A stretch of DNA of 32,000 nucleotides from Candidatus Thorarchaeota archaeon (GCA_048882505.1 JBHLRO010000002.1:270001-302000), one strand, 5' to 3'. Counted from the first letter of the stretch, positions 1,198 to 30,471 are shown. The notes: generated by a model not told the origin, from the sequence alone. Program-made: numbers and translations.

Positions 1198-1737
1198 ATG
1201 AGCGATGATAGACGATTATGGAAAATAGTGCTCGTGGGAGACGGAGCAGTTGGTAAAACCTCACTCCGAAAACGCTATTTAGGAGAAGGTTTCGAATCGG
1301 ATTACCTCTCGACCATGGGCGCCGATTTTGCTCTCTATGACACGACAATCGGGGCTACAGAAATTCGTTGGCAAATCTGGGACTTAGCAGGTCAGCCGGT
1401 CTTTGCTGATGTCGTCAAGGCCTATTATACTAAGATTTTCGGTGGAGTCTTAGTTTACGATGTCACCCGACGCCACACGTTCAAGAACAGCGAAAATTGG
1501 TTGAATGACCTCTGGACGAATTCCGGACGTGAACGAAAAGTCCCCGTGGTTCTCCTCGGGAACAAGATCGATCTCCGTGATGAAGAGGGTGCAGAAGCTA
1601 CATCCACTGATGAAGGGCAAGTCCTTGCAGATCGATTAGGTGTTCCCTTGATCGAAACTTCTGCAAAATCGGGAGCGGGCGTTCAGGCCGCCTTTGAAGA
1701 ATTAGGAAAGGCCATATTGAAGTATACTTCCGAATAG
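1198..1737 (+). CDS. Rab-like small GTPase
   Basis: G1 GDGAVGKT, switch I STMGADF, G3 WDLAGQ, G4 NKID, G5 ETSAK. RabF-like segments WQIW, YY and LVYDVT are present. No C-terminal cysteine. Confidence 0.92.
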   Translation: MSDDRRLWKIVLVGDGAVGKTSLRKRYLGEGFESDYLSTMGADFALYDTTIGATEIRWQIWDLAGQPVFADVVKAYYTKIFGGVLVYDVTRRHTFKNSENWLNDLWTNSGRERKVPVVLLGNKIDLRDEEGAEATSTDEGQVLADRLGVPLIETSAKSGAGVQAAFEELGKAILKYTSE

Positions 1738-17187: not shown

Positions 17188-18126
17188 ATGTCGAGTATTC
17201 TTAGAAGATTGTTTAAAGGAAAGCCAAAATCAGAGACAAGTCAAATTGTTATTATAGGATTAGATGGGGCTGGCAAAACTACGATTGTGAACCGCTTACT
17301 CCGTTCAGAGTTCATTCCTACAACTAGAACATTAGGGGTTAATTATCGTACAGTGAAATACCGACAAATAGAGTTTAATCTCGTGGATCTCGGGGGACAA
17401 CAAATTTACCGAAATTTGCTCTGGGATGCCTCCCTAGATAAAGCCAATGCAATTGTATTCGTCCTAGACAGCGCAGATATTCGTATTGCTGAAGCCTCGG
17501 ATGCTTTTTGGGATTCCATTAAACGGAACGAAAAGGCGCCCGTGTTATTCATCGCGAATAAGATAGATCTACCTGGGGCGCGTGCTTTTGAATTAATTGT
17601 CCAAGATTTGGATTTAACCCGTGCTACTCGTTCTACAAATAGACCCGTGGGCTTATTTCGTGTATCAGCAAAAACAGGGGAAAATTTCTATGATGCTTTC
17701 GATTGGCTCGCCGATGTTATCTCAGGAAAAGAATCAACATTTAAGTGCAAAGTCCGTCAAGTTATCCTTATCGACCTTGAATTCCGCAAAATTTATACTA
17801 CCAAGTTTGTATCGGTTAGTCCTGAGATTCTAGATGAGATAAATGCTGGACTCTCCGAAACAGTGTCAAGATTGGATGAAAACCCAGCTGGAATGGAGGT
17901 AGTAACCGCATCCGATTTGCAGTTGGTCATAGTGAAAAGCTATCCCTTGGTCGTGGGACTCATCATTGGATATTCGGATTCCGTAGTACGAGCAAAGCTA
18001 ATATCAGAGCGGATAATGAAGTCAGCTGCTCAACCGATAGAGATTGAACAGTTCTCGTCGGATATATTACGACGAATGTTTGAAAAACAATGGCCATTGG
18101 ATCTTTATAAAAAGCGATCTGCCTGA
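17188..18126 (+). CDS. Arf-like small GTPase with C-terminal longin/roadblock-like domain
   Basis: Amphipathic N-terminus MSSILRRLF, then GLDGAGKTT, DLGGQ, NKID and SAKTG motifs, followed by a ~130-aa alpha/beta extension. Confidence 0.85.
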   Translation: MSSILRRLFKGKPKSETSQIVIIGLDGAGKTTIVNRLLRSEFIPTTRTLGVNYRTVKYRQIEFNLVDLGGQQIYRNLLWDASLDKANAIVFVLDSADIRIAEASDAFWDSIKRNEKAPVLFIANKIDLPGARAFELIVQDLDLTRATRSTNRPVGLFRVSAKTGENFYDAFDWLADVISGKESTFKCKVRQVILIDLEFRKIYTTKFVSVSPEILDEINAGLSETVSRLDENPAGMEVVTASDLQLVIVKSYPLVVGLIIGYSDSVVRAKLISERIMKSAAQPIEIEQFSSDILRRMFEKQWPLDLYKKRSA

Positions 18127-21610: not shown

Positions 21611-23266
21611 TCAATAATTCCAGCCGGGCCCTCTAACTACTCGTCCTGGAGTCTTATTGGTATGTTTTCCGTTTTTCAGCACCTGTGTTCCGTTGACGAA
21701 TACATGAATCATGCCTGAGGCATACTTATGTGGATTTTCGTAGGTGGCATTATCGATTATCTTATTTGGATCAAAAACGGCGATATCTGCAAAGAATCCC
21801 TTTTTTAGAGCTCCTCTATCCTGAATTCTCAGATTCTTAGCTGGCTGTGAGGAGAGTTTTCTTATTGCTTCCTCCAGCGGGATTAGCTTTTCTTCACGAC
21901 AATAGTGCCCAAGCAATCTGGCCACATTCCCGTAAGCCCTTGGGTGAGGATTTGATTTTAGAAAGACTCCTTCCGAGGCAACACTAGCTGCATCGGATCC
22001 AAAAGACATGTAAGGAAGTTGGATCTTTTTCGCCACATTATCTTCTGACATCATGAAATAAATCGTTTCGACTCTACTGTCATCTTCAATAATCAAATCC
22101 ATTGCTGTTATGAGAGGGGAAGTCTCCCTATCTTTCGCTACTTGCGCTAATGTTTTTCCCGTTAAATTTTTAAGCTCATCGGATTTAAAAGAGATCAAAA
22201 ACATATTTTCAGGGCCAGATTCCAAGTACAAATTTTCCCAGTCATCAGTTTGTTCTTGCGCTTCTGTCATTATCCTTTTTCTTAAATCTGGATCTTTTAA
22301 CCTTTTAATGAATTCATCATGCCCTCCTTCATAAGTCCAAGGAGGAAAGGATGAGGATAATCCCGTAGCTCCTGCAGTATAAGTGTAACAATCAGTAGTA
22401 ATCTGCACCCCACTTTTTCTTGCATCATTGATTTTTCGGATTGCTGAATCCAATTTATGCCAATTATTCTTGCCAGCTGCCTTCAAATGATAAATTTCGG
22501 CCCTTATATTTGCCGCCTTTGCAATACTGATTAATTCATTAAGTGCTTCATGAAAATTAGCTCCTTCACTCCTAAGATGACTTATATACATCCCGTCATA
22601 TCTGGCTGCTACCTTACAAAGTTCTATTAATTCTTCTGTTTCCGCATAAAACGCAGGTGGATATATCAATGCAGAAGCAACTCCTAGAGCTCCCTCTCTC
22701 ATTGCTTGATCGACCAATTCTGACATTGCTTGCTGTTCATCCTCAGTTGGGTTTCGGTCTTCATATCCAAGTGTATGAATCCTGACGGTCGTTGCACCCA
22801 CAAATGATGCGACATTTGGTGTTACTCCTGCTTTTTCCAAATAATCCAGGTATTCTGATAAAGTCGTCCAAGAGATATCATATTTAATGTCCCCCTGTCG
22901 TTTGAGTGCCTCCTCTTTCATTTGATCATTTAAAGGTCCCATTGACCATCCTTCGCCGAAAACCTCGAGAGTAATTCCCTGTTTTATATCGCTTAATGAT
23001 CGACCGTCCTCAATTAGTGAATCACACGCCCAACTAAGCATATTAATGAATCCTGGCGTCACAGCCAGATTATTTGCATCGATTTCCTGCTCTGCATGTT
23101 CTTTTCCAAACGATCCTATTGCTCTGATACGATCACCCTTAATTGCTATATCTCCACGGAAAGGGGGCTTTCCACTACCATCGAATATGGTTCCGTTACG
23201 AATAATCAGATCACGAATTTCGATTTCTATCACCGCAACAATTGAATCTCTCAGGTATGTTGTCAC
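21611..23266 (-). CDS. N-acyl-D-amino-acid deacylase-like amidohydrolase
   Basis: IIRNGTIFDGSG, DIAIKGDRI, SHLRSEG, IYHLKAAG, FGSDA, HPRAYG and GFFADIAVFDP motifs. The start codon is uncertain. Confidence 0.87.
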   Translation of the reverse strand: MTTYLRDSIVAVIEIEIRDLIIRNGTIFDGSGKPPFRGDIAIKGDRIRAIGSFGKEHAEQEIDANNLAVTPGFINMLSWACDSLIEDGRSLSDIKQGITLEVFGEGWSMGPLNDQMKEEALKRQGDIKYDISWTTLSEYLDYLEKAGVTPNVASFVGATTVRIHTLGYEDRNPTEDEQQAMSELVDQAMREGALGVASALIYPPAFYAETEELIELCKVAARYDGMYISHLRSEGANFHEALNELISIAKAANIRAEIYHLKAAGKNNWHKLDSAIRKINDARKSGVQITTDCYTYTAGATGLSSSFPPWTYEGGHDEFIKRLKDPDLRKRIMTEAQEQTDDWENLYLESGPENMFLISFKSDELKNLTGKTLAQVAKDRETSPLITAMDLIIEDDSRVETIYFMMSEDNVAKKIQLPYMSFGSDAASVASEGVFLKSNPHPRAYGNVARLLGHYCREEKLIPLEEAIRKLSSQPAKNLRIQDRGALKKGFFADIAVFDPNKIIDNATYENPHKYASGMIHVFVNGTQVLKNGKHTNKTPGRVVRGPGWNY

Positions 23267-23351
23267 ATATAGTTTTCAACCTTATTCAGGACTTTCAAAT
23301 GATATGAATTTAAAAGGAACTATAATTTTATTGACCTAGATTCAATATTAA

Positions 23352-26300
23352 ATGCCCTTAATAAGCTGTAATTCGAATTTAGTGGAATTGGTGGTTATGT
23401 CATCAGATATAGGCATGAGTCACGTCTCAAAGGAGCAACTGCACGAGATTGGTGGATTGGCTACAGAACTAAGATCATTAGATCCTATGGTGCAAATTAT
23501 TTCTCCTCTTAATGAAGCGCAAAAGCTAGTAACTGAAATAGAAAGGTTAAGAAAAGACATGCCAAGCGCAGGCTTTTTCAAAAAGCGGGGTATCAAAAAA
23601 AATTTGGCTCAAAAAGAAGGGAAATATCGCGAACTTACTGAAAATTTGACAGAGAACTTATTAACTGGGTATCGAAAGATTTACTTCGATTTAGCAAACA
23701 ACATCAAAGAAATCGCCAAGTTTATTCCACAAGAGACCGACAATATCAGGGCTCTTCAAATTCCTAGTTTTAATCCTCAACAGATTCTGGCCTTCAGTGC
23801 CAACGTTCTGAAGACCCATAACCAGATTTCAGAGATTTTACGGGGAAAAAATATTGCGATCTTGGTGCATAATAGGGAGATCTTGGATCTTTATACCAAA
23901 TTCGTGGATTTTGATGAGGAAAAAGTCCAGGTAACCAGGAGGACGACAAAAAATGCGGTGCACGTTATGGGCGTCTCTGATTTGCTTGAGCTCTATAATC
24001 AACTCGAGACCGAAAGCGCCTATTTGAAACAGCGCCGAAAGGGAACTGAAGGTAAGATTCAGGTCGCAATCATCCAGATGTCTTCCGAACTTCAACAACA
24101 TCTCGACACTGTCACCTCGATCGGTTTGGCAAGTGCTTTGGGCGATAAAATTAACCTACTCAGGGATCAAGTTCAGGAAATTAAAACCAACGCTGAGGAC
24201 AGTAGCTCGGTTGAATCCTTAATACTATGGGAAAAGGGACTCAATGAACTCAACTCGGAATTCCTAAATTCTCTTAGAACATATGAAATCTCTTTAAAGG
24301 CTGAAACCGAAGAAAAAATAGGCCGAATTCTCCAAATCTCAGGTAAACAAGGTCTAGAATCTTCCCTAGCTTCTGCTCCAGAAATAAATGTTTCGACATC
24401 AGATCTTTCTGAAATTATCCGGGATATTGAAAAGCTCCGATCATGGCAGCAGAACCAGGTCTTGGCAACTAGGGACTTGATCAGCACTGCCGCCCTTATG
24501 AACGCAGGAAAGACAATCAAGGCCATGATGATACCTATTCCAGAAGAATTTGCCAAAGAACTCCGTATAATTGATAAAGAAGCAAAAAAAGCACAGGATA
24601 TGTCATCCTGGATGGGTCTTGTTCAACGATACTTCGATCTCATGGCGATGTTAGCTGATGCCTGCCAACAGTATTTCTATCGGCTTCTGGAGAATCCGTA
24701 TATTCAAGAAGCCATTAACGTTAGTGAGGGCCCTCAGATTCCTATCATCCGTGACCTTAAGGATCTCGCTCCTAGTGAATTGGTTGCGAAAGCCCGCGAG
24801 ATTAAGGACTGGGAAACCCGCCTGGTTGCATTTTTTTCCAAACCTGCTCAGCAGAGTCTACGACAAACCCTTCTCAATTTGTTCGACTCTCGAGAAAGCC
24901 TCCAAAAGTTGTTATCGGAACCAACAATACAACAAATTGAGACACAGCGGAAACAAAAGAGTATGGAGGATAAAGAAATACGAGAACTCGTTCGAGAGAT
25001 AGATGTCTTGACTCGGCTCAATGCCACTATCCGAAATGAGATCTTGTCTGCGATTGATGCTGAGATAAATCCAATATACAATCAACTTACAATCCTAGAA
25101 ACCATACCTCCTAAATTAAAAGCTCATGTTCCCGTCTTGGCATTAGACGATTTGAAGGCACTCCGAGACGATATCACCATCGCAGCTGAAGAGGGTCTTC
25201 CCCAACTCTTGGATGAGTATGAAAAAATACCTGTCTGGAAATACAAAATAGCCACTCGGATCCGTGAGAATCTCAAATCGATCCCCTTTCCCCTAATTCC
25301 TATTGAAACCCGTTTCGATCTTCGTGAAAAGCGGAATGAGATTATAGGTACTATCGATCAGTTGTCAGAAGATGGAAACATGGAGGCCATGATCCAAGAA
25401 TATATTGGATTTCTTAGAACTATTGAGGAATATAAGAATGAAATCTTGGTAGAATTAAAGAAACAGATTGAAAATTTAGAGGAGGTGGATAAACGTTTAT
25501 ATCGATTGTTGAAATCACGTAGGACCTCCCCTACATTTTCCACGGAAAGAGAATTTGATGTTCTCGATTACTCTGAAGCCTTAACAGAGTATTGGCAGTT
25601 AAATGCTTATATAGAACGGCGTGTGGCCACTTTAACTGAACAGATGGAACGGGAGATTCATAGCCACATTCAAGATTATTCCAAGCTGTCCCCTCAGTAT
25701 GCTGAATTCTTTGAGGAACCTATTTCCCTTATGCAGGAGAGAACGGAGGAAATCAAGACGCATAAGGACATAGTGCAGCTGGTTAACATTTATGAGAGCT
25801 ATTCATTAGAATCATTACAATTAGCGAAAAATTCCTTAGCAAAACTACATCAGAATCTCCACAATTGGCTGCGGGTCAGTCTTCCAAGAATAAACGAGAT
25901 TACACCTGTCGATCCAGCTGTTTTCGCGGCAGAGAGAAAAATAGCAGATTTCGAGGTCGAAGATGTCTCACATGAACGCTTGGCAAATAAACTAAGACAA
26001 TTGATCTTTTTGTATGATACAGAAATAGTTGCTGTTCTTCTGGCGCAAGCGGTCGTTGAATCTAGGAAAATTCTGAAAAATGTCAATGATTTGAAAGATA
26101 TGGGAATATCTATCATCAGCCATGTTGGCGGTTACATTGAACGTTTCTCCCAAGTACTTGTTAAAAACCAGGAAGATGTTCACATCAAGGAGATTACCGA
26201 GGTTTTCACAGAGATTGACAACCTCCAAAACGATCCAGCTGCGTGCAGGGAGATTCGATCCATGGGTGATCAAATCATTCAAAGTATCGATATCGCGATT

Positions 26301-26909
26301 AACTACCTCAATCAATATCATAATCGAAACTTACGCCAAGATAATCGGTTGGATTTTTCCGCTATCAGTATGTTTCAGAAATTATCAACTATTACTCACG
26401 TGGGACAACTTACCGAGGCTTTAATTCGTTTGAATCAAGTTTCAAGACAGGTGAGCGATACTATTAAGGTTGTGGAAGCAGACCGCTCAATTGCTCTTCA
26501 GGCTGAACTGAGCAAGTTGAAATACTACTCTAGTATTCAAGAAGTCTTTTCTCAATTTCCTGAGGAATCTTCAGATTCAATCTACCCTCTTTCTGAGCTC
26601 ATCAAGGCAAGAAAGGAACTTACACATTCTCAAAGTTTGAAACGGATTTTAGAACTGCTCCCCTTTATTGACCAAAAGCGTGTGGAATGGATCAAGGTAT
26701 CAAACCAATTGAATCGTTGGCATCGAGCCATTAGGATGTTTCGTCCTCGATATGTACCCACCGAAAACCCAGAGGAGAATCTTAGGCAGTACAAAGACGT
26801 CAAAAAGAAAATTAAGGAGACATACCCCCAAAACAACGTGATTCAAGCCTATTTATCCCTTGTAATGAGGCTATTTATTGAAAATAAGACTAGCATTAAT
26901 TTAGATTAG
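23352..26909 (+). CDS. Large all-alpha helical-repeat / coiled-coil protein, unknown function
   Basis: 1185-aa ORF rich in E/L/I/K/R, with helices punctuated by Pro/Gly and no enzyme motif. The true start may be the Met at 23397 or later. Confidence 0.8.
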   Translation: MPLISCNSNLVELVVMSSDIGMSHVSKEQLHEIGGLATELRSLDPMVQIISPLNEAQKLVTEIERLRKDMPSAGFFKKRGIKKNLAQKEGKYRELTENLTENLLTGYRKIYFDLANNIKEIAKFIPQETDNIRALQIPSFNPQQILAFSANVLKTHNQISEILRGKNIAILVHNREILDLYTKFVDFDEEKVQVTRRTTKNAVHVMGVSDLLELYNQLETESAYLKQRRKGTEGKIQVAIIQMSSELQQHLDTVTSIGLASALGDKINLLRDQVQEIKTNAEDSSSVESLILWEKGLNELNSEFLNSLRTYEISLKAETEEKIGRILQISGKQGLESSLASAPEINVSTSDLSEIIRDIEKLRSWQQNQVLATRDLISTAALMNAGKTIKAMMIPIPEEFAKELRIIDKEAKKAQDMSSWMGLVQRYFDLMAMLADACQQYFYRLLENPYIQEAINVSEGPQIPIIRDLKDLAPSELVAKAREIKDWETRLVAFFSKPAQQSLRQTLLNLFDSRESLQKLLSEPTIQQIETQRKQKSMEDKEIRELVREIDVLTRLNATIRNEILSAIDAEINPIYNQLTILETIPPKLKAHVPVLALDDLKALRDDITIAAEEGLPQLLDEYEKIPVWKYKIATRIRENLKSIPFPLIPIETRFDLREKRNEIIGTIDQLSEDGNMEAMIQEYIGFLRTIEEYKNEILVELKKQIENLEEVDKRLYRLLKSRRTSPTFSTEREFDVLDYSEALTEYWQLNAYIERRVATLTEQMEREIHSHIQDYSKLSPQYAEFFEEPISLMQERTEEIKTHKDIVQLVNIYESYSLESLQLAKNSLAKLHQNLHNWLRVSLPRINEITPVDPAVFAAERKIADFEVEDVSHERLANKLRQLIFLYDTEIVAVLLAQAVVESRKILKNVNDLKDMGISIISHVGGYIERFSQVLVKNQEDVHIKEITEVFTEIDNLQNDPAACREIRSMGDQIIQSIDIAINYLNQYHNRNLRQDNRLDFSAISMFQKLSTITHVGQLTEALIRLNQVSRQVSDTIKVVEADRSIALQAELSKLKYYSSIQEVFSQFPEESSDSIYPLSELIKARKELTHSQSLKRILELLPFIDQKRVEWIKVSNQLNRWHRAIRMFRPRYVPTENPEENLRQYKDVKKKIKETYPQNNVIQAYLSLVMRLFIENKTSINLD

Positions 26910-26931
26910 ACCTTGTCAAGGTAGGTGAACT

Positions 26932-28329
26932 GTGATGGCATTAGAAGGAATAGAATCTGAAATATTTGCAATAGGAATTGGTGAATGCGGTAGTAACCTG
27001 CTTGGAAGTTATTTAGCTCGATCGAACCGCGGAGAGCTTCCACATCGGATACGAGAGTATTTGATTATGAACACGGATCGTGGAGACCTATTAAAAGCAC
27101 GTAAGAAGTATTCAATTTCCTCAAAGAGAACGCTTCTCTATTCTGATGCCGAAATCGGCGTTGGCGGAAAATTCGCTGCTGGCTACGAGGCCGTTCTAAA
27201 CTCGGAAGATATCATTCTCAACCAGCTCCAATCGCTTGGTTATGAGGGTATTTCTGGATTCATCCTTTTGACATCGTTTGGAGGGGGTACTGGCTGTGGG
27301 GGAACTCCTGCTTTAATTCGATTACTTCGCAAACGATTTGCCGAACAGGAGAAAAGGAAAATATTTATCTACGTCTTTGGAGTTCTACCTTTTCTAAATC
27401 AGTCATCAGAAGCTGTTAATAGTGTTTGGGCGTTATCCAAACTCCTACGCCTGCAATTAGAGAAAGATAATATGGGTCCAGATCTCATCCTCCTGCTTTC
27501 CAATCGAACAATGCTTGAGCGTGTTCTAAGTATGCAACGGGGAGAAGCCGTTGATTTGTTAAGTCGTCAGACCGGAGAGGATCTCGCAAATCTATCTACT
27601 CCAAAAGTATCTACGCCCATACAGACCACCTCCCCTTTGGCCGGGATTTTGGGAGGTGTAAATTCAAATCAAATACCTCATATGGAAGAGGCTTTTGTCG
27701 AGTTAGTAAATCCCTTGGCCTTGGAGTCTATCGCGGAGATGTTATCACCTGGAGTACCTGAAGCAGGTAAAGAAGTACTTCCAACCACTGATATTGGAGA
27801 CTTCGCTCTAAAACTCGATAGTGTGGTTGTCCCTGCCATGTTTGATGATCTTGCAATCTTTCCTGAGGTTGGTGGAGTTGGTTCACAGCTATCAACGGCT
27901 GTTGAATATACAGCGGGTCATGGCAGTTTAACGGAAATGGGTACTAATCCATCGGCTTCATCAGTTTTTTCTGTACTCTCTGGACCACGTGAGATTGCTC
28001 GTGTGGAATTTGATCCCCTACTTAAAAAAGCGCTATCACCTTTCCTTGCCAAAGGGGCCAGTATTTCTCCCACTTATTGTGCCTATGATGATGATGACGC
28101 AAGGGCATCTTTACTCTTGCTTTTTGGGCTTCCTCGGATCCCAGAACTTTATGATATTTTGCAGGAAGCTAAAGCACTGATCGATCTCCATAGCGGCAGC
28201 TCGGAACTCAAACAACATTGGTTTCAAAGATCGAAAGGTACCACAAAGGGTGAACTAGTTTCTGCAGTAGATGATTTAGAAAAGCTTTTCGGCTATTATA
28301 TTACTCCTGACCAAGGAAATCTCGAATGA
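26932..28329 (+). CDS. Tubulin/FtsZ superfamily GTPase (divergent CetZ/tubulin-like)
   Basis: T1 IGIGECGSN (26980), MNTD, T3 GVGG, signature GGGTGCG (27280-27300), GVLP, LLSN, T7-like TTDIGDF (27784-27804) and GLPRIPEL. An AGGTGA ribosome-binding site lies upstream. Confidence 0.88.
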   Translation: MMALEGIESEIFAIGIGECGSNLLGSYLARSNRGELPHRIREYLIMNTDRGDLLKARKKYSISSKRTLLYSDAEIGVGGKFAAGYEAVLNSEDIILNQLQSLGYEGISGFILLTSFGGGTGCGGTPALIRLLRKRFAEQEKRKIFIYVFGVLPFLNQSSEAVNSVWALSKLLRLQLEKDNMGPDLILLLSNRTMLERVLSMQRGEAVDLLSRQTGEDLANLSTPKVSTPIQTTSPLAGILGGVNSNQIPHMEEAFVELVNPLALESIAEMLSPGVPEAGKEVLPTTDIGDFALKLDSVVVPAMFDDLAIFPEVGGVGSQLSTAVEYTAGHGSLTEMGTNPSASSVFSVLSGPREIARVEFDPLLKKALSPFLAKGASISPTYCAYDDDDARASLLLLFGLPRIPELYDILQEAKALIDLHSGSSELKQHWFQRSKGTTKGELVSAVDDLEKLFGYYITPDQGNLE

Positions 28330-28333
28330 TTAA

Positions 28334-29410
28334 GTGGATGCATACAAGTTGGACGAAAATCACCAACAAGGAAAGGATAAATCTACATCCTCCTCTATAA
28401 CCCCGTCAACCTCTGATTTCGAATCTCAACAATTAATCAGATACCCTGAGTTTTGGAATTCCCGTGGAAACATCGGTGAAAAAATTAACATTATTACGGG
28501 GTTAGTTCTTCTTCTGCTCCGACTAGTTACGACACTTATCCAGTACGTAGGAGAATCCAATACAATTCCTAAATCGACACGCAGTGAGATCAAACTGGTT
28601 GAAGATTATGTTCACCAATTGTTGGTACAACCCGTTTCAGGGCTTGAACTGCTCGAAAAGATAGAATCACTTGAAAACGAGCTAAAAAGAATCCAGGAGA
28701 CATTTATCGAAAACACAACCAAGGCATCTGCCCATGTAGAAGCTACTACACCAACCGATAGTAATGAGATTGGGATTTTTCTCAGGAAACCGCGAACAAT
28801 AGACAAATGGGGTATCATTGAATCGATCGAATCGTTAATCAGCTCATATTCTGCTTTATCACATTTGGGTTTTCCGAACTACTATCTTGAGGCCTGTAAG
28901 GATCTTCTATACTATGAGATTCAATCCCAATACTCCCGTTCCGACGATTCTGAAATTTTACAAATTCCTACTGCTCACTTACGAACCATCATCAGTAAAT
29001 TGCTGCGTGAAGCTCCGTCTGCTCGATTGCTTCAGAATCTAAAAAAAATGTTTCCTGACCTTCAGGAAACCGAAGTCGTACCCTCAGATTTGGATCAGAT
29101 TCGTGCTATTATTTCGCGCTATTATATTGGCATTTCGCAGTTTTTGAAAGAGGAAAGAACCTTGCAAGATTCCCAACGTGCTTCACGAATTCTTCTTCAA
29201 AATTTCAATCTTGGAGGAGGTGATCTTGAATCACGTATTCCGAATGTGTCGTTTAATGTCGCTAAGGATATTTATGCCGACATCGAACGGGCAACTGGAA
29301 ATGATTTTAAGCAATACATTCTTTCTGAGACTTTAGTGATGATTAGCAGATTGAACGACTCCCTTCTTCATAACAAGCGCTACATTGAATTACTTCGCCG
29401 ACTTAAATAA
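28334..29410 (+). CDS. Hypothetical helical protein, co-oriented 4 bp after the tubulin-like gene
   Basis: 358-aa ORF with a Ser/Thr-rich N-terminus, one long hydrophobic helix (INIITGLVLLLLRLVTTLIQYV) and coiled-coil-like segments. Confidence 0.72.
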   Translation: MDAYKLDENHQQGKDKSTSSSITPSTSDFESQQLIRYPEFWNSRGNIGEKINIITGLVLLLLRLVTTLIQYVGESNTIPKSTRSEIKLVEDYVHQLLVQPVSGLELLEKIESLENELKRIQETFIENTTKASAHVEATTPTDSNEIGIFLRKPRTIDKWGIIESIESLISSYSALSHLGFPNYYLEACKDLLYYEIQSQYSRSDDSEILQIPTAHLRTIISKLLREAPSARLLQNLKKMFPDLQETEVVPSDLDQIRAIISRYYIGISQFLKEERTLQDSQRASRILLQNFNLGGGDLESRIPNVSFNVAKDIYADIERATGNDFKQYILSETLVMISRLNDSLLHNKRYIELLRRLK

Positions 29411-29712
29411 ATGTCATTTTAGTAGTGAATAATCATTTACTCTCGGCTTGTGATTGGTTAATTTAGGAGAAAGAGGTTTCCCTATAATAGCAGAATACAA
29501 AATTATATTTATTGGGTAGATTTCTTATATCAAGACCGTGATATTGAAATTACTAAGAACCTGAGCAAAAACCACCTCTTGACGCTTACGGACGATTTCC
29601 TCTACAGATGTAAACCTTCCGTACAAGGAGCAAATCCGAAAGGTTCTTTTAGGATTGTAAAGTATAATGAATTCCAGACTTCAAAGCAACATTTATGGCG
29701 TGAGGTTCGGTC

Positions 29713-30471
29713 ATGGGAATCGAAGCAGGTATTAAATCAATAGAAGAAATGACAGTTGCGATTATAGACGCTATTCGGCAAATCCAAAATACGTCCCACC
29801 AGAATCTTAGTATTGAAACAATCCAGAGTGTGGAACAACTCCCTATTCTACTTAGAACTCTTCAAAGTTCCTTGGATGAATTTCAAAATACATTCACAGG
29901 TGCCACTGAAGAGACAAAAAAAGATCTCAAGTTTATCAAGGTGAGCTACCTTGAAGATGTCGTTGGACCAATCCGTAAACTCGCTCAAGAGATCGAAGCT
30001 ACCGTCACAGGCTCTACCGGGCAGATTAAAAATCTTTACGAAGTGAGTGTGAGTAATTTTGTCCCAATTTCTGATAAGCTCGAAATCATCGAGGGCCGAT
30101 TGAACGCATTAATCGAAAACCAAACTGATCAACTGGCTGCCGTGGCAGATCTTCGTGATCGTGTACATGCAATTATTCAAGTCGAGTTAGTTGCCTTAAA
30201 AGATCGCATTACCATATATCTGGAAGCGAGTGTAAATGAACTGAAAACCTCAGTGACCGAGCGGCTGGCCATGCAAGATGAATCATTGAACAAATTAACA
30301 AATATTATAACCCAATTAACCCAAACGATTGCAGCCCTCCCTGATTTATTAAGCCAGGCAATTAACAATGCTGTGGAGGAAAAGGTTGTTGCAGAACTGG
30401 CCTCAATGAAAAACGACGTTAGAAAAATGACAGCTTTTATCATAAAAACTCAACGAGACAAAGAATCATAG
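29713..30471 (+). CDS. Coiled-coil / amphipathic-helix protein, unknown function
   Basis: 252-aa ORF with continuous heptad-like hydrophobic periodicity and a GAGGT ribosome-binding site upstream. Confidence 0.72.
   Translation: MGIEAGIKSIEEMTVAIIDAIRQIQNTSHQNLSIETIQSVEQLPILLRTLQSSLDEFQNTFTGATEETKKDLKFIKVSYLEDVVGPIRKLAQEIEATVTGSTGQIKNLYEVSVSNFVPISDKLEIIEGRLNALIENQTDQLAAVADLRDRVHAIIQVELVALKDRITIYLEASVNELKTSVTERLAMQDESLNKLTNIITQLTQTIAALPDLLSQAINNAVEEKVVAELASMKNDVRKMTAFIIKTQRDKES

Follow-up and report, generated by a model that had tools for sequence, protein, structure and literature searches.

The tubulin-superfamily proteins closest to the system described here belong to Asg.Tub, which Santana-Molina, del Saz-Navarro and Devos (2023, Front Microbiol) presented as a 'novel CetZ-like group in Asgardarchaeota', with four sequences and an unstable phylogenetic position, CetZ-like or basal to tubulins (PMC9871819). 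The same paper places these genes among genes of no known kind, mostly with coiled-coil regions (PMC9871819), and a CetZ review counts the Asgard proteins as 'non-canonical' members of the tubulin superfamily (PMC9856176). Here we analyse one such gene together with its two neighbours in a window of 32,000 nucleotides (bases 270001-302000 of contig C2 in a 4.3-Mb archaeal assembly, G000, 94.6% complete). Genes for a large helical protein (BIG), a middle GTPase (TUB) and a small helical protein (SML) follow each other on one strand, and this order recurs across Asgard archaea; the trio is probably an uncharacterised filament system. We treat the window locus as Hodarchaeales (Asgard). The three open reading frames (ORFs, lengths in amino acids, aa) are:

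23352..26909, + strand: BIG, longest ORF, 1185 aa
23397..26909, + strand: BIG from its likely true start, ATG 23397, 1170 aa
26932..28329, + strand: TUB, 465 aa from GTG 26932; likely 464 aa from ATG 26935
28334..29410, + strand: SML, 358 aa from GTG 28334, or 353 aa (database record) from TTG 28349

BIG and TUB are separated by 22 nucleotides (nt), TUB and SML by 4 nt. The ORF coordinates confirm what the initial annotation had pointed out, namely three co-oriented genes with these gaps, a divergent gene to the left (it encodes an amidohydrolase) and a gap of about 300 base pairs to the right (302 nt). The same annotation had proposed an undescribed system, which is correct for the conserved trio but not for the GTPase family, named in 2023 (PMC9871819). 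The C-terminus of one published Asg.Tub protein, PWI48967.1 from Heimdallarchaeia B3-JM-08, is near-identical to TUB, including PTTDIGDFALKLDSVVVPAMFDDL, and the comparison with the published C-terminal alignment of the clade gives a nearly residue-for-residue match; TUB is therefore a member of Asg.Tub. Already known are thus the family by name and its odd neighbours, in one sentence of PMC9871819; the three-gene order and the cross-lineage homology of the neighbours are reported here and not there. Against the searchable literature, we consider as new the phylum-wide trio, the cross-lineage homology of both partners and the fact that they match no known family. A full-text literature search for the name Asg.Tub returned only PMC9871819; no experimental work on the family was found.

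Several other systems invite comparison. CetZ, an archaeal tubulin-like protein of cell shape (4b46, 4b45, 3zid), is the closest solved relative of TUB by sequence over the N-terminal GTPase domain; however, the similarity is confined to residues ~12-175 and TUB has no match to the CetZ_C domain. CetZ genes are not known to come with a fixed set of partners. BtubA/BtubB with BtubC and TubZ with TubR resemble the trio in combining a tubulin-superfamily polymer and a dedicated non-enzymatic partner in one operon, and BtubC is an all-helical protein. However, the trio combines a single GTPase with two partners, of which BIG is very large; neither BIG nor SML is related to BtubC or TubR in sequence or fold, and the trio has no centromere-like repeats. 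FtsZ with the membrane tethers ZipA or SepF may be analogous, as SML runs from a hydrophobic helix at its N-terminus through a linker to a globular C-terminal domain, but there is no homology, the SML helix is not transmembrane-like outside Hodarchaeales, and the trio occurs besides other PF00091 (presumed FtsZ) genes. OdinTubulin, a true tubulin relative, is also encoded in an Asgard genome between genes for coiled-coil proteins upstream and downstream (PMC9871819; PMC8956254). Its two neighbours were reported to be specific to that genome (PMC9871819; PMC8956254), whereas those of the trio are conserved across many families.

Conservation of the three genes across Asgard archaea

Profiles of BIG, TUB and SML were run against 21 loci, namely the window, two Thorarchaeota-type contigs and 18 regions from nine families. 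The order BIG-TUB-SML on one strand was found in 19 of them, in at least nine Asgard families, with neighbouring genes of the trio overlapping by up to 73 nt or lying up to 67 nt apart in longest-ORF coordinates. Since the same order is kept over so many loci and families, the arrangement goes far beyond chance. This supports the earlier idea of a dedicated system, for which a search of Asgard genomes for the gene order had been proposed as the first check. Clustering of the flanking ORFs showed that only BIG, TUB and SML are common across families; all other neighbours are conserved inside families only. Both partners also flank TUB in the Thorarchaeota-type contigs, and they are homologous to those of Hodarchaeales (BLASTP 2e-25 for BIG and 5e-24 for SML). 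A TUB relative of 43% identity (P0232) sits in a trio as well.

TUB is far more conserved than its partners. Across families, identity to the window copy is 39-58% for TUB, 16-24% for BIG and 20-26% for SML; within the genus the values are 83%, 65% and 43%, respectively. A polymer and its binding proteins usually show this pattern, in which the nucleotide-binding subunit evolves slowly and its partners evolve fast. The TUB tree recovers the family clades, which indicates mainly vertical inheritance.

In a sample of 301 genomes across the phylum, the TUB family is present in 115. It is near-universal in several families: 19 of the 20 genomes of the window's own family have it, as do 66/76 in f11 (Thorarchaeota-type), 15/19 in f17, 4/4 in f19 and 5/5 in f20. 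It was not found in f3 (0/29), f14 (0/68), f4 (0/11) and f7 (0/11) of the same sample. So far, Asgard studies have dealt mainly with lokiactin, FtsZ and true tubulins. The last are rare, occurring in ~1% of Asgard genomes in one study (PMC13394414), and the trio is far commoner than they are.

Other PF00091 genes help to place the trio within its genomes. The window's genome has only two PF00091 matches, TUB and C15:12508-12981, the latter presumed to be FtsZ. High-quality genomes of the same genus have two or three, presumably one FtsZ, Asg.Tub and sometimes a paralogue. Congeners up to 99% complete likewise show one match besides Asg.Tub, and most other sampled Asgard families show two. In f11 there are three matches per genome, presumed to be two FtsZ (FtsZ1 and FtsZ2) and Asg.Tub, and in f14, where the trio was not found, there are two; from these counts, Thorarchaeota-type genomes appear to carry the trio on top of their division proteins. 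No clean pattern of compensation between the trio and other PF00091 genes was seen among these genomes. As a separate observation, two genomes carry adjacent PF00091 pairs (G304:C1:877765-879658 and G145:C52:9085-11038; E 1e-53 to 1e-58, ORFs of 429-440 aa) that look like true tubulin operons of the AtubA/AtubB type.

Predicted features of the GTPase and its partners

Judged by its sequence, TUB is a tubulin/FtsZ-superfamily GTPase. It matches PF00091 over residues 10-173 (E 3.3e-16, 60.6 bits against a cut-off of 33; 63.1 bits in the whole-genome scan), so the superfamily part of the earlier label 'CetZ/tubulin-like' stands. In searches with a profile of 41 family sequences, CetZ proteins were the closest solved relatives (4b46, 1.2e-15; 3zid, 1.7e-11; 4b45, 4.3e-10), followed by tubulins, FtsZ and TubZ (E 1e-6 to 1e-5), and all matches to solved structures were limited to the N-terminal domain, residues ~12-200. 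A CetZ cluster also ranked first in the Atlas feature search. CetZ as a name is nevertheless too specific. CetZ_C (PF21011) gave no match in TUB at E up to 1 and none in the whole genome at E up to 10, where control searches in Haloferax and Methanosarcina were positive, and TUB is therefore not a canonical CetZ. No tubulin C-terminal Pfam family was found in TUB either, and its tubulin matches span only residues ~71-200 (E ~1e-6).

Three motifs stand out in TUB. A T1-like motif, GIGECGSN, lies at residues 15-22, and the G-box GGGTGCGG at residues 117-124 has Cys122 where Ser, Thr or Ala is usual in GGGTG[S/T/A]G. The third motif, PTTDIGDF, has the family form TTD(I/L)(G/A)D(F/Y), which we take to be a T7-like loop by its likeness to the FtsZ motif; the assignment rests on this likeness since the alignments to solved structures end at about residue 200. 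Invariant among the 41 family members are G15, G17, G20, N22, G118-G123 (including Cys122), D287 and D290, the last two within the third motif. A variable insert occupies residues ~205-250, and the start evidence favours ATG 26935 over GTG 26932.

The family is tight and isolated. A search of 1.84 billion representatives returned three full-length 50% clusters (E 1.8e-163, 8.6e-96 and 9.8e-21), after which the next full-length matches reach only ~1e-9. The source labels given for close homologues are all Asgard (Hodarchaeales, Heimdallarchaeota, Thorarchaeota and 'Lokiarchaeota'), and TUB shares 52-84% identity with proteins that bear the first three of these labels, one of them from LC_3.

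For BIG, residue numbers refer to the 1185-aa ORF. The protein probably starts at Met16 (ATG 23397), as homologues have ~1170 aa, M16 is near-invariant and the Atlas record begins there. The AlphaFold2 model, built on the family alignment, is all helix, with many helices of ~40 residues, a mean predicted local distance difference test score (pLDDT) of 81.8 and a predicted template-modelling score (pTM) of 0.39. The parts shared with Thorarchaeota homologues are N-terminal (~23-365) and C-terminal (~616-1185), residues 1051-1170 being the best conserved block. Conservation is lowest at residues ~391-630; part of this stretch is a Hodarchaeales-specific insert that is missing from the ~900-aa Thorarchaeota form.

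No search connected BIG with a described family. Neither Pfam nor NCBIfam gave a family, the NCBIfam matches being at chance level only; a Pfam scan of 36 family members found none consistently present, a stray HTH_11 match (E 0.028) occurring in one of the 36. The BIG profile matched nothing below E 0.75 among all PDB sequences. Foldseek against the PDB gave no convincing match (best E 0.025, with dynein heavy chains at template-modelling scores, TM, of ~0.1), and the best hits of the VIA fold search (Z up to 10.6) were all three-helix bundles, below the level that is meaningful for helical proteins. Matches among AFDB clusters were to the Ebh GA-module, LPXTG surface rods and spectrin beta (E 3e-5 to 1e-2, TM at most 0.16). 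The top Atlas match is an 897-aa Thorarchaeota cluster, which probably belongs to the same family as BIG. No homology between BIG and SML was found.

The initial annotation had called BIG a helical-repeat rod, of which the helical part is supported by the AlphaFold2 model. A regular sequence repeat is not supported: self-comparison of BIG with hhalign over 861 window pairs gave two matches from overlapping windows, that is, one marginal repeat pair (~244-315 against ~379-445, probability 69%). With this, the low pTM and the low TM of the rod-like matches, the repeat rod is not established; BIG is fairly described as an elongated multi-bundle helical protein. Separately, in the complete congener genome G241 (L053:6903-8882) the BIG ORF has only 659 aa, and the gene may be split or frameshifted there.

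The SML model has a mean pLDDT of 77.9. Residues 1-37 are disordered, residues 44-128 fold into a helical bundle that opens with a hydrophobic helix, and a short low-confidence linker leads to a compact, helical C-terminal domain (~145-358, pLDDT >90) with the motifs LLREAPSARLLQNL and GGGDLESRIPNVSF. Since shorter homologues (293-305 aa) retain this domain, we regard it as the conserved family core. Hydropathy of the first helix reaches a Kyte-Doolittle mean of 2.24 over a 19-residue window (residues 51-69), and 43 of 61 family members reach at least 1.6. The helix is very hydrophobic in the window copy and in other Hodarchaeales; elsewhere it has values of 1.0-1.6 with conserved Asn residues. 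As transmembrane-like hydropathy is found only in Hodarchaeales, a membrane anchor is possible in the window's lineage but is no feature of the family. The description of SML as a helical partner thus agrees with the model, while the role of adaptor or anchor that went with it receives little support.

Database searches with SML were mostly fruitless. Pfam and NCBIfam gave no family, with none consistent among the 61 members, and the profile matched nothing below E 0.75 among all PDB sequences. With the whole model, Foldseek against the PDB found no convincing match (best E 0.12), and VIA-align against 48,161 chains returned generic helical bundles over residues 40-132 or 272-350 (best Z 8.8). 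Two uncharacterised proteins at 36% and 15% identity were matched among AFDB clusters and are probably relatives within the SML family. The Atlas shape search stayed at TM of 0.31 or below, and the Atlas feature search with residues 145-358 gave no usable match. Complex prediction of TUB with SML (residues 38-358) scored 0.00 in both runs, which were made without controls, and is no evidence either way.

A possible filament system and alternative explanations

We favour, as a reasonably probable reading, a single operon for a GTP-driven Asg.Tub polymer and two obligate accessory factors, of which the large one would serve as scaffold or cross-linker and the small one as adaptor. The GTPase domain and its motifs, the helical partners, the tight spacing and the order conserved across the phylum were observed; polymerisation, physical binding, the role of each partner and a function in cell architecture are inferences. 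As in FtsZ, CetZ and tubulin, TUB would bind GTP and assemble into head-to-tail polymers, in which the T7-like loop of one subunit supplies the acidic residues that set off hydrolysis in its neighbour. BIG, with its 900-1200 aa, would act as an elongated scaffold or cross-linker, and SML (~300-360 aa) as an adaptor working through its conserved C-terminal helical domain. A role in cell architecture rather than in division is suggested by the f11 genomes, which carry TUB besides two presumed FtsZ. Tentatively, we hypothesize that the trio might be an ancient, vertically inherited cytoskeletal machine for cell architecture (shape, protrusions, internal organisation), whose partners have folds not seen before.

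Some observations weigh against the favoured reading. Two of the 21 loci hold a paralogous BIG2-TUB2 pair without an adjacent SML gene:

L039:9420-14180, congener G256: BIG2 (~1140 aa) and TUB2 (~444 aa)
L040:5560-10331, congener G136: BIG2 (~1140 aa) and TUB2 (~444 aa)

The paralogues are 54% (GTPase) and 21% (large protein) identical to the primary copies. In the tree, TUB2 and the primary copies of the window's order are sister groups (support 100/99), which indicates a duplication inside that order; the window's genome has a single copy and no BIG2-TUB2. Furthermore, an outlier of 30% identity to TUB (P0237, L056:7001-9149) has neither partner nearby, so that the GTPase fold can exist without them. 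It has dihydroorotate dehydrogenase genes upstream and SMC/ScpA nearby, overlaps a 262-aa ORF without detectable relation to SML, and marks the edge of the trio's distribution. To these cases must be added that the partners match no recognisable family or fold, so that their roles are guesses, and that the T7 loop of TUB was assigned by motif likeness. Separately, a 311-aa ORF upstream of BIG2-TUB2, considered as an SML homologue, turned out to be unrelated.

Four other explanations have to be weighed. The trio could be a membrane-tethered or membrane-remodelling system, in which the N-terminal hydrophobic helix of SML anchors the polymer in a ZipA-like manner and shapes membranes or protrusions. 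The hydropathy of residues 51-69, their position after a disordered N-terminus and before a linker and globular domain, and the many family members that reach 1.6 speak in its favour; but outside Hodarchaeales the same helix is less hydrophobic and has conserved Asn residues, AlphaFold2 packs it into the helical bundle, and no ESCRT-III/Snf7 or other membrane genes are conserved beside the trio, so that we regard this explanation as rather unlikely. Alternatively, and by analogy with gamma-tubulin and the GCP proteins, the products could form a GTPase complex that makes no filament, with TUB as a regulatory or capping subunit held by BIG. This we consider quite improbable. BIG is indeed all-helical, has 900-1200 aa and is best conserved in its C-terminal block, and gamma-tubulin chains are among the weak matches of TUB, over a longer stretch (71-200, E ~3e-6). 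However, no GCP or Spc97/98 Pfam match was found in the 36 BIG members at E up to 0.1, nor any GCP chain among the Foldseek and VIA matches, although these searches used the whole BIG model (pTM 0.39) and a single-domain likeness could escape them. The window's genome, with one other PF00091 match only, also lacks another tubulin to nucleate, and a T7-like motif that is conserved and acidic points to polymer contacts of a self-activating kind.

That the three proteins act separately, and that adjacency reflects co-regulation without physical interaction, would fit the much faster evolution of the partners. Nevertheless, the fixed order and the tight or overlapping spacing persist at ~16-26% partner identity while other flanking genes change, and such an order is hard to keep without functional coupling, which makes this explanation very unlikely. 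Bacterial tubulin-like GTPases with dedicated partners segregate plasmid and phage DNA, and a type III partition module of the TubZRC kind or a mobile-element module might be imagined on that model. Yet neither BIG nor SML contains a consistent DNA-binding family, no iterons, centromere-like repeats or significant tandem arrays were found in the flanks of the operon, and no repeats in the upstream region 23267..23396; integrase or other mobile-element genes did not turn up among the neighbours scanned. The surroundings are of a housekeeping kind, 19 of the 20 own-family genomes have the TUB family and its tree follows family clades, all of which leaves a segregation or mobile-element role exceedingly improbable.

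If the hypothesis of an ancient cytoskeletal machine is true, the trio would add a third tubulin-family system to FtsZ and CetZ in archaea, and it would be the first of them to encode obligate partners. The trio may reveal a new way to organise a tubulin-like polymer. The host group comprises close archaeal relatives of eukaryotes. As a defined three-protein system, the trio is open to direct expression and imaging.

Probable transcription unit and surroundings of the trio

The regions bordering the three genes in the window are the following:

21611..23266, - strand: amidohydrolase gene, left neighbour, divergent from BIG
23267..23396, + strand: upstream intergenic region, common to the trio and the divergent amidohydrolase gene
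29411..29712, + strand: downstream gap of 302 nt, with a T-rich stretch straight after the SML stop codon

An A/T-rich TTTAAAAG box lies near 23309-23316 in the upstream region and GGTGG directly 5′ of ATG 23397; read by eye, these are a putative promoter and ribosome-binding site. The downstream gap is likely the end of the transcription unit. The sequencing runs listed for the operon region and for the TUB gene alone were all DNA runs from sediment metagenomes, with none of RNA. Farther left of the amidohydrolase gene are genes for a MoCF-biosynthesis domain protein, CDC48, an Arf-like GTPase and an eIF-2B-family protein, and right of the gap those for a 252-aa helical protein and then a nucleotidyl transferase. 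No division-cluster genes are among these window neighbours, as the initial annotation had noted for the ftsZ cluster.

A 626-656-aa WD40 beta-propeller gene is located just upstream of BIG, in divergent orientation, in f11 (Thorarchaeota-type) loci and in that family only; the position is occupied by the amidohydrolase gene in the window. The WD40 genes are at:

L004:3185-5065: WD40 beta-propeller gene
L005:3080-5050: WD40 beta-propeller gene
L043:4151-6103: WD40 beta-propeller gene
L044:3984-5918: WD40 beta-propeller gene
L045:13486-15456: WD40 beta-propeller gene

The 252-aa helical protein (29713-30471, + strand) has weak apolipoprotein-like Pfam matches at E 7e-4, far under the cut-off. 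Its position is kept only in the window's own family (L037, L038, L053 and L054), and it could be a lineage-specific neighbour or mere local synteny. The Arf-family small GTPase (17188-18126, + strand; PF00025, E 3.5e-35) has a C-terminal extension of ~130 aa, and in congeners a homologous ORF is found at the same place, ~5 kb upstream of the trio. A 179-aa ORF at 1198-1737 (+ strand) is related to this GTPase.

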